A stretch of 64,000 bases of DNA from contig OY970289.1 of NCBI GenBank assembly GCA_963716135.1, positions 3,593,207 to 3,657,206 on the forward strand. Reading direction: 5' to 3'. Position numbers and translations under genes: made by a program. The notes under the pieces were generated by a model. It saw nothing but the letters and a program-made list of their open reading frames with translations. It searched no databases and was not told the DNA's origin. Positions 94 through 1,390 of the stretch are shown in pieces. The stretch's first letter is position 1; each line of letters opens with the position of its first letter. The DNA is from Pirellulales bacterium. GTDB lineage: Bacteria; Planctomycetota; Planctomycetia; Pirellulales; JADZDJ01.

Positions 94-234
94 CGCGACC
101 TGCGGTCGCGGCTTTATGTGGGGGCGGCGCCGGGCGAGCTCGGCGGCTAAATCGCAAGCGGATGGGGAGCGGGGTGGCGATTCGATCCCCCGGTGGAACC
201 GGGGGCTGACGGGGCGCTGGGTGAATGGAGCGCG
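94..234. repeat. Structured intergenic repeat of about 140 nt, copy A (near-identical to 1190..1329)
   Basis: Aligned by eye. The central ~75 nt (tcggcggctaaatcgcaagcggatggggagcggggtggcgattcgatcccccggtggaaccgggggctgacggggcgctg) is identical in both copies. Hairpins CGCGACC-n3-GGTCGCG and CCCCCGG-tggaa-CCGGGGG are present. Confidence 0.85.
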
Positions 235-290
235 GGATGAGCGCGCGCCCCCGGGTCATTGACCCGGGGCTAAGTAAGCGGCGGAAATGG

Positions 291-1057
291 TTACGCGCTG
301 GCGGGCTGCTTTGCGACGCTGCGGCGGAGCCAGTCGTCGTAGCGGGTTGGGGCGGTGCGCGAGGCGCCGGTGGGGACCAGACTGGTGTCGTTTACCGGGG
401 TGCCGAAGTAGCCGACGTGAGGATCGGTGACGACTTCGCGAGGGTCGCGGGTGGCGCGGAGGTAGCGGCGCACCAGTTCGTCCATGCGAATGGGTTCCGG
501 GCCCGCGAGATCGATGGTGGCGTTAAGGGGCTGGGCGAGGGCAACATCGGCCAGGGCCGCGGCGACATCGTCGGACAGGATGGGCTGCATCATGGCCGGG
601 GAAACTCGAACCGTTTGGCCGTCGGTGGCCGCTTGGGCGATTACAGGGACGAACTCGAAAAACTGCGTGGCGCGAACGATTGTGTAGGGAATGTCGGCAG
701 CCTTGATCAGGTTTTCCTGAGCCATTTTCGCGCGGAAGTATCCGCTGGCCTGCAGGCGGTCGGTGCCGACCACGGAAAGGGCAACGTGATGGCGCACTCC
801 GGCGGCCTTTTCGGCGGGAAGCAAGTTGCGGCCCGAGGTTTCGAAGAATTCGAGGACTGCTTTGTCTTCGAAGGAAGGGGAATTCGCGACGTCGACGACG
901 ACCTGGGCGCCCGAGAGGGCATCGTTGAGACCTGCGCCGGTGAGCGTGTTGACGCCAGTGGATGGGGAGGCGGGGAGAACCTCGTGCCCTTTGCGCGGAG
1001 CTTGGGGACGAGTTGCTTTCCGATCAATCCGCTACCGCCGATGACGACGATTTTCAT
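291..1057 (-). CDS. NAD(P)-binding NmrA/SDR-like oxidoreductase with an apparent 1-nt frameshift near 984-989
   Basis: The N-terminus MKIVVIGGSGLIGKQLVPKLRAKG (Rossmann GxxGxxG) starts at ATG 1057 in the ORF 707..1198 frame. The rest (..TGVNTLTGAGLNDALSGAQVVVDVANSP.. to stop 291) is in the ORF 291..824 frame. The 767-nt length is not a multiple of 3. Confidence 0.75.
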
Positions 1058-1189
1058 GGCAGGACCCCCGTTGGTTTGGTGCGGCGATGCTGCGTGGCGA
1101 GACGAATTGCTAATGTAGCAAAATCGGGGCCAAATGGTTGGGGCGCGGCGGCCGCGGGGGAGAGTGGGGCGCGCGGGGGCGATGCGCAC

Positions 1190-1329
1190 CGCGACCACCG
1201 GTCGCGGCTTTATGGGAGGGCGGGGCCGGGCAAGCTCGGCGGCTAAATCGCAAGCGGATGGGGAGCGGGGTGGCGATTCGATCCCCCGGTGGAACCGGGG
1301 GCTGACGGGGCGCTGTGGAATGGAGCGCG
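1190..1329. repeat. Structured intergenic repeat of about 140 nt, copy B
   Basis: Same element as 94..234. The first hairpin keeps its stem but has a different loop (CGCGACC-acc-GGTCGCG versus -tgc-). A few substitutions and one indel occur in the flanks. Confidence 0.85.
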
Positions 1330-1348
1330 AGGTGGCGGTGCGCAGACC

Positions 1349-1390
1349 GGCGATACCATCGCCAACTTTATGGGGGGGCGGGGCCGGGCG
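1349..1390. repeat. Partial third copy of the 5' module of the 140-nt repeat (hairpin plus CTTTATGGG..GGCCGGGC)
   Basis: GGCGAT-acc-ATCGCC is followed by aactttatgggggggcggggccgggcg, matching ctttatgggagggcggggccgggca at 1208..1232. It overlaps the last codons and stop of acpS. Confidence 0.6.

Follow-up and report, generated by a model that had tools for sequence, protein, structure and literature searches.

What kind of element gave rise to the two nearly identical direct repeats of about 140 nt that stand on either side of a single oxidoreductase gene, just downstream of acpS, in a Pirellulales bacterium? The stretch of DNA analyzed here, hereafter the window, comprises 64,000 nt (positions 3,593,207 to 3,657,206, forward strand, of contig OY970289.1 in assembly GCA_963716135.1), and the repeats lie near its beginning, at 94-234 and 1190-1329. 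Between them, on the minus strand, is a gene for an NmrA/YbjT-like NAD(P)-binding short-chain dehydrogenase/reductase (SDR; 291..1057, PF05368, PF13460), and the second repeat is followed by acpS (1368..1778, minus strand), whose product, the holo-acyl carrier protein synthase AcpS, belongs to PF01648 and is 100% identical to the protein P0001. The reading that we favor, and hold with roughly even confidence, is that a lineage-specific non-coding repeat was amplified together with the 3′ end of acpS, and that the SDR gene was inserted into the array. The surroundings of acpS were compared with those in the relatives L001/L012, L002, L008/L010 (L008 is the same contig as L010), L009, and L011.

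The repeat pair reported in an earlier note on this DNA is real (~93% identity). A repeat search recovered 127 nt of it at 95% identity (93-219 vs. 1189-1315), and weaker homology reaches further, with 85% identity between 61-248 and 1152-1343. The identical core was given as 75 nt in that note; it exists but was underestimated, as the run 137-219 comprises 83 nt without any difference. All the hairpins named there were also found by reading the window sequence. On global alignment the two copies, A and B, could be divided into a hairpin (A, 94..111, CGCGACC-TGC-GGTCGCG, 8-9 bp when the flanking C/G is counted; B, 1190..1207, CGCGACC-ACC-GGTCGCG; 16/18 positions), a 24-nt module (112..135 and 1208..1231; 21/24), a linker (136..152, GAGCTCGGCGGCTAAAT, and 1232..1248; 16/17), and a conserved core, here named K (K_A, 153..234, and K_B, 1249..1329; 81/84).

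The module (CTTTATGGGNGGGCGGGGCCGGGC) occurs three times in the window, starting at 112, 1208, and 1366, and nowhere else in the 64 kb, a result matched by none of 100 shuffles. Its third occurrence (module C, 1366..1389, minus strand) codes for the last residues of AcpS, PGPAPP, followed by a TAA stop codon. The tails of the closest AcpS proteins are KPPEAPK and KPPAAPAP, encoded by DNA that can be aligned with window 1366-1392, and the collinearity with L008 reaches window position 1380. Because the AcpS tails of the relatives (including those of L010 and L009) lie on homologous DNA, module C is native acpS coding sequence, and modules A and B, which on the minus strand read PGAAPT and PGPALP before a stop codon, are its copies; in both of them another in-frame stop precedes the module on that strand. 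The third occurrence had been noted before as a partial copy of the repeat that overlaps the acpS stop and its last codons (PPGPAPP): the overlap is confirmed, but it is the native 3′ end of the gene that lies there. As copies A and B contain the duplicated acpS tail, the scenario that the earlier note had set against its own interpretation, a local duplication of the 3′ flank of acpS, is part of the truth. On the minus strand each unit has, as described there, the stop-codon-like CCCAYAAAG followed by a hairpin.

Homologues of AcpS place the window among uncultured Pirellulales. In the close relatives L001/L012 (AcpS 94% identical to that of the window) and L008/L010 (a 717-kb contig with ~90% nucleotide identity, collinear with window 1380-9439), a comparison that the earlier note had proposed, neither the SDR gene nor the repeats are present; acpS and topA converge there, with stop codons 7-13 nt apart. 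No topA occurs inside the window. The gene that comes after acpS varies, being topA in L001/L012 and L010, a TIG/dockerin gene in L002, and a PEP-CTERM-like gene in L011, while in L009 acpS is followed by K. Because what follows differs between relatives, the acpS 3′ flank is a synteny breakpoint at which rearrangement has recurred among them.

The core K is found beyond this locus. K_A, identical to K_B over the 83-nt run, is ~91% identical to L010 18373-18452, a site 8.4 kb from acpS and between the convergent genes pqiA and glgB, whose stops are at a distance of 89 and 21 nt, respectively, which shows that the repeat is not purely local. In L009, a 603-nt ENA contig with a closely related acpS that ends at the K-like sequence, a diverged version (CGCAAGCGGACGGGGAGTTGGGCGGCC) adjoins the hairpin after acpS. 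With the L009 and L010 copies counted in, K is therefore a family with no fewer than three loci, spread over three genomes. The linker is common to A and B but absent from the relatives' K copies, and the right boundary of K (...GAATGGAGCGC) was placed at the end of the clear A/B homology. On the minus strand, a co-oriented gene (glgB, SDR, and twice acpS) has its stop 21-56 nt before every K. Copies were counted in the window and in the relatives' sequence, ~135 kb in all, with 2 in the 64-kb window (both in direct orientation), 1 in 20 kb, and 0 in another 20 kb; nhmmer and a covariance model of K found only the known copies. An apparent extra copy at 52586-52653 was rejected, as it belongs to the coding region of an OmpH-like gene that is GC-rich and of low complexity there. 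With module and core as exact patterns, GTDB representative genomes yielded 0 matches and 1 (the one being a chance match in a Luminiphilus coding region), JGI metagenomes 0 and 0, and viral contigs 0 and 0; no match was obtained by BLAST of plasmid and phage sequences. A protein-coding small open reading frame (ORF) was ruled out, since a 1-nt indel separates K from its L010 copy, the minus frames contain stops, and no protein homologues were found in any of the six frames (0 hits in 5.8 billion proteins and 0 in 1.8 billion representatives); the exact small ORFs are absent from the protein collection and were not called as genes. A derivation of K from acpS coding sequence was likewise discarded, the local alignment being no better than with shuffles.

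Taken together in register, the repeat is best read as a small array, specific to this species, of at least four units of ~157 nt, each with a hairpin of 8 bp and a 3-nt loop, a copy of the acpS tail, the linker, and the ~82-nt K. In plus orientation the order is a K remnant (K_y), hairpin A, module A, linker, K_A, hairpin X, no module, a linker remnant, the SDR segment, a 3′ remnant of K (K_x), hairpin B, module B, linker, K_B, hairpin C, and module C. The two repeats on either side of the gene are real, but they are better described as units 4 and 2 of this array, with an interrupted unit between them. K_y (38..93) is a degenerate 3′ part of K in register before hairpin A, cut by or near the window start. 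K_x (1139..1188) precedes hairpin B, and its 5′ half is replaced by the SDR segment (~290-1138). The register is seen most clearly on the plus strand, where every K or K remnant, including its 3′ part, is followed by the 8-bp/3-nt hairpin and CTTTATG. For K_x against the 3′ part of K_B with the sequence behind it (1297-1344) the score of 36 was reached by 4 of 1000 shuffles, which makes this remnant significant, and for L_C against L_B the score was reached by 4 of 500. TRF did not detect a ~157-nt period, the units being too diverged and interrupted. As an observation apart, the module forms on the plus strand (112-135, 1208-1231, 1366-1389), i.e., on the non-coding strand of acpS, a canonical G-quadruplex motif, GGG-N-GGG-C-GGGG-CC-GGG, which stems from the proline codons, and the unit after hairpin X has lost precisely this G-rich part.

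Homology of the inserted gene to other SDR loci ends at the boundary of its coding region. When repaired, the protein has 255 aa and best hits of only 80-81% identity, even though the genomes of close relatives are in the collection, and no K was found near its homologues (75-81% identity) in other contigs. A perfect palindrome, TTGCTA-ATG-TAGCAA (1107..1121), read from the sequence at a distance of 50 nt before the start codon of the SDR gene, has the look of a repressor operator, which suggests that the gene may have arrived with its own control region. The edges of the segment are marked by an 8-nt direct repeat, AAATGGTT (285..292 and 1132..1139), which has three occurrences in the 64 kb, two of them at these junctions; some 8-mer is shared between the junction zones in 9% of shuffles.

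The same gene had been called frameshifted because of a 1-nt break near 985, where the window reads GGCAC instead of the expected GGCCAC. This is most likely an assembly artefact. Within 10 kb, the reading frame is also broken in the genes for a FAD-oxidase, for MoaA, and, twice, for an aminotransferase when these are compared with their intact orthologues, and genes are fragmented in a sister assembly from the same study, too. Because at least four frame breaks occur in conserved genes nearby, the SDR break is probably a sequencing or assembly indel error, and the gene no pseudogene; the assembly seems to be rich in 1-nt indel errors, and its apparent pseudogenes in this region are suspect. 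In comparison with L010, the frame changes fall at window ~9283, ~6990, ~6392, and ~6177 (FAD-linked oxidase, MoaA, and, twice, class-V aminotransferase), and the ORF of the tryptophanyl-tRNA synthetase (2038-3336) continues for ~110 codons beyond the end of its orthologue.

From these parts the following history could be proposed. K, with ~82 nt and three short hairpins possible, would be a low-copy intergenic repeat family of this Pirellulales group, and one copy would have stood just downstream of acpS in the genome of the window. The segment then amplified would have comprised the last ~8 acpS codons, the stop, the 8-bp/3-nt-loop hairpin, K, and the linker, and its local amplification, likely by unequal recombination or replication slippage, would have produced at least four units with a period of ~157 nt. 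About 850 bp of foreign or relocated DNA, with the SDR gene and its palindromic control site, would later have come to lie inside one unit. The two 140-nt repeats would thus be intact units on either side of the interrupted one, and the 83-nt identical run would most likely reflect recent gene conversion or unequal crossing-over between units A and B. What has been shown is the make-up of the locus, its absence from close relatives, the derivation of the module from acpS, and the dispersed and non-coding character of K; how duplication and insertion came about, and any role at 3′ ends, is inferred.

The unit hairpins vary in a way that the earlier note had taken as conservation of structure rather than of sequence. 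In register, all have 8-bp stems and 3-nt loops, with the arms CCGCGACC/GGTCGCGG in A and B, CCCGGGTC/GACCCGGG in hairpin X (249..269, CCCCGGGTC-ATT-GACCCGGGG, in unit-hairpin position just 3′ of the SDR stop), and CCGGCGAT/ATCGCCGG in L009, whose full 8-bp form is CCGGCGAT-ACC-ATCGCCGG; in hairpin C of the window (1349..1363, GGCGAT-ACC-ATCGCC) two bases are changed relative to L009 (GG to AA) and 6 bp remain. Between the hairpin types 4-5 pairs differ, and all these changes are compensated in the in-register alignment, as the earlier note had seen for the stem sequences. The whole window has ~15 perfect hairpins with stems of 8 bp or more, and 5 of them fall within the first 1.3 kb. The variation shows real conservation of a hairpin. 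Quasi-palindrome correction, or templated mutation in DNA hairpins (Ripley-type), can also keep the arms of a palindrome complementary, however, so that the variation is no proof of selection on RNA. A hairpin beside each real or fossil stop would most plausibly mark the 3′ end of a transcript, as terminator or stabilizer, and could be shared with convergent transcription.

Several points weigh against the amplified array with an inserted gene. The window begins inside the putative K_y, topA lies outside it, and K was counted in 64 kb of this genome. K_y (41/60 matches with K_A in a local alignment, as good in 148 of 1000 shuffles) and the possible linker remnant after hairpin X (277..289, AAGCGGCGGAAAT, a weak match equalled by 92 of 1000 shuffles, with the G-rich module absent) are each individually non-significant. 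The alternation of the well-kept K_A and K_B with the decayed K_y and K_x would need more than one duplication step, and the 83-nt identity with 11-26% divergence on either side could equally mean selection on K. Finally, none of the hairpins has a T-run or U-tract behind it on the minus strand, and no classical intrinsic terminator is evident for acpS or the SDR gene.

The 83-nt identity between diverged flanks also enters into the alternative that holds up best, although we consider it unlikely, in which K and the following hairpin would be a small RNA (sRNA) gene on the plus strand and the array a putative group of sibling sRNA genes that run towards acpS. Each of them would end in the 8-bp GC hairpin and CUUUAU, and the hairpin beside acpS would act as a shared terminator. 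Tandem sibling sRNA genes, each with its own terminator, are a known arrangement (e.g., PrrF1/PrrF2 or the LhrC cluster). The plus-strand register of hairpin and CTTTATG would fit it, and hairpin A is the sole terminator-like site found by a terminator scan of the plus strand in 1-2000; the CTTTATG after hairpins B and C (4 T in 8) makes both miss the scan by one T. K is moreover about as conserved between two species, at non-orthologous loci, as coding DNA, and the sequence on both sides of its 83-nt identical run is diverged. Three helices are possible in K_A, namely P1 (150-155/177-182), hp2 (187-193/199-205), and P3 (214-218/229-233), of which hp2 is CCCCCGG-TGGAA-CCGGGGG at 187-205 and again at 1283-1301. 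Among three K sequences one pair is compensatory (U-A to C-G), and a wobble change in P1 (A-U to G-U) is tolerated on the plus strand only. The compensation in the K helices is, however, equalled by 162 of 500 shuffles, fold z-scores are about 0 (up to +0.4) on the plus strand and -0.4 to -2.3 on the minus strand, and the L009 copy entirely lacks hp2. The U-tracts hold just 3 U, no sigma-70-like promoter was found on either strand of 1-2000, and neither in L010 nor in L009 is there conservation upstream of K. A search of the 64 kb against Rfam 15 gave 0 hits at gathering thresholds; for 1-1500, relaxing the limit to E<=10 brought up five chance-level hits, none on the repeat core. The structured small RNA that the earlier note had entertained thus gains little from the Rfam search, the range of z-scores, and the single compensatory pair in the core. 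A tRNA or tmRNA fragment serving as integration site was rejected as well, as ARAGORN finds no tRNA or tmRNA in the window, relaxed thresholds call junk inside coding DNA too, and the hp2 loop has 5 nt and is not a 7-nt T-loop.

A further alternative, to which we give somewhat less credence, is that K is a selfish element similar to repetitive extragenic palindromic sequences (REPs), bacterial interspersed mosaic elements (BIMEs), or miniature inverted-repeat transposable elements (MITEs), mobilized in trans and with a preference for gene 3′ ends, in which case the local array and the rearranged neighborhood would be by-products of its activity. The three loci in three genomes, the position of K, always within 21-56 nt of the stop of a gene on the same (minus) strand, and the synteny breakpoint downstream of acpS speak in its favor, as does another REP-like palindrome family in the window; in addition, hp2 is preceded on the minus strand by CGTC, the tag of one REP superfamily (PMC3733652). 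In CGTC REPs, the tag abuts a stem of 8-9 bp that opens with A-T pairs and is followed, after a 4-5 nt loop, by a CCA-like tail, and a genome carries tens to thousands of copies, in many cases paired head to head as dimers (PMC3733652). The minus strand of K reads CGTC-AG-CCCCCGG-TTCCA-CCGGGGG-ATCG instead, with the tag 2 nt away from a 7-bp, all G-C stem and with ATC as the tail, so that K was rejected as a CGTC-tagged REP. As a MITE it was rejected because neither K nor the 140-nt unit is bounded by terminal inverted repeats, the sole inverted match (1183-1196/1331-1344) coming from the palindromic TGCGCA at the K ends. No target duplication surrounds K itself, no transposase or REP-associated tyrosine transposase (RAYT) gene is known nearby, and the few copies, together with the lack of exact matches in GTDB representative genomes, JGI metagenomes, and viral contigs, also argue against such a selfish element. 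Literature searches on REPs or MITEs of planctomycetes led to nothing but a general survey of REPs (PMC3733652).

Repeats of other kinds occur in the window besides K. The REP-like family just mentioned consists of long perfect palindromes on CACTGACAAGC, with stems of 10-16 bp (43557-43591, 57097-57121, and 57142-57171). Dispersed tandem arrays of 7-nt units (GTCAGGA, GGCGGAA, and GGCAGAA/GCAGAAG) stand at gene boundaries (1781-1850, 6486-6535, 38559-38622, 48818-48853, and 61350-61399); the first immediately precedes the acpS start, and L010 has an array like it (~18290-18330) beside its K copy. There is also a 112-nt direct repeat (56683-56794 / 57658-57769; 79% identity, 975 nt apart) and a 160-nt inverted repeat (19828-19987 / 22889-23048; 78%, 2.9 kb apart), the latter possibly reflecting paralogous genes.

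Two bolder interpretations would be a long shot: the K units (~157 nt, at gene 3′ ends) might be sites of an undescribed gene capture or shuffling in Planctomycetota, by which single genes such as this SDR gene would enter and leave arrays of the structured unit via short cores such as AAATGGTT, or they might be a new multi-copy family of regulatory RNAs in Pirellulales, with arrays acting as recombination hot spots.

Weaker still, and highly improbable in our view, is that the repeats are recombination sites and the SDR gene a mobile, excisable cassette integrated in a K unit by a site-specific or short-homology mechanism. A single gene with its own control palindrome, absent from close relatives and bracketed by direct repeats with the 83-nt identical core, would suit a cassette, and the 8-nt repeat stands exactly at both edges of the ~850-bp segment. 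Yet this shared 8-mer is not significant by shuffling, the insertion goes along with a loss of ~50 nt of K_x, as would be expected of illegitimate recombination, terminal inverted repeats are absent from the segment, and the SDR homologues elsewhere are not flanked by K. No integrase is present in the 10 kb to the right, where housekeeping genes are syntenic with the relatives. An integron attC site, defined by the inverse core RYYYAAC and the core GTTRRRY at either end of an imperfect palindrome of 55-140 nt, was rejected because both motifs are absent from both strands of 1-1500 and the sequence folds into several small hairpins and not into one long one.

If the favored history of amplification and insertion holds, the locus would illustrate clearly, on a small scale, how the 3′ end of a coding sequence and its terminator-like hairpin can be co-amplified with a non-coding repeat and how such arrays then receive new genes, which would help to account for the loss of synteny behind acpS in uncultured Pirellulales. 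A previously uncatalogued element of ~82 nt (CGCAAGCGGATGG...GAATGGAGCGC) is defined here and can be searched for in planctomycete genomes. Some caution is due with annotations, since the 'pseudogene' of this locus is most likely an indel artefact, as are probably further ones in the assembly. Overall, we regard the locus as a modest case of genome plasticity, with no evidence yet for a new RNA or a new mobile system.

How the locus compares with systems already described depends on the feature considered. With integron cassettes and arrays of clusters of attC sites lacking integron-integrases (CALIN) it has in common a single gene, absent in relatives, that is bracketed by similar, structured direct repeats of ~140 nt; it differs in having no R″/R′ core motifs, no long imperfect hairpin, and no integrase in sight, and in that the gene interrupts a repeat unit rather than sitting between complete sites. 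Quasi-palindrome correction would explain perfect 8-bp stems that differ at 4-5 pairs without any selection on RNA, but it is a mutational process and not a family of elements, and covers the hairpin variation only. Tandem sibling sRNA genes (PrrF1/PrrF2, LhrC) come closer, as they too are tandem non-coding units of ~100 nt with a GC hairpin, a short T-run, and high identity between copies; in contrast to them, this locus has no detectable promoter and negligible covariation, lacks the central hairpin in one relative's copy, and has as its spacer a fossil of the acpS coding end. REP/BIME clusters share with it short, GC-rich hairpins in intergenic position at gene 3′ ends, lineage specificity, clustering, and variable neighborhoods, as well as the CGTC beside hp2, whereas K has three hairpins over ~82 nt instead of one palindrome of 20-40 bp, was seen in very low copy number, departs from the stem and tail rules of CGTC REPs, and belongs to units that include a duplicated coding piece, the acpS tail. 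Although it falls into no catalogued family, the locus as analyzed here resembles tandem sibling sRNA genes to a lesser degree, and composite intergenic repeat clusters the most.

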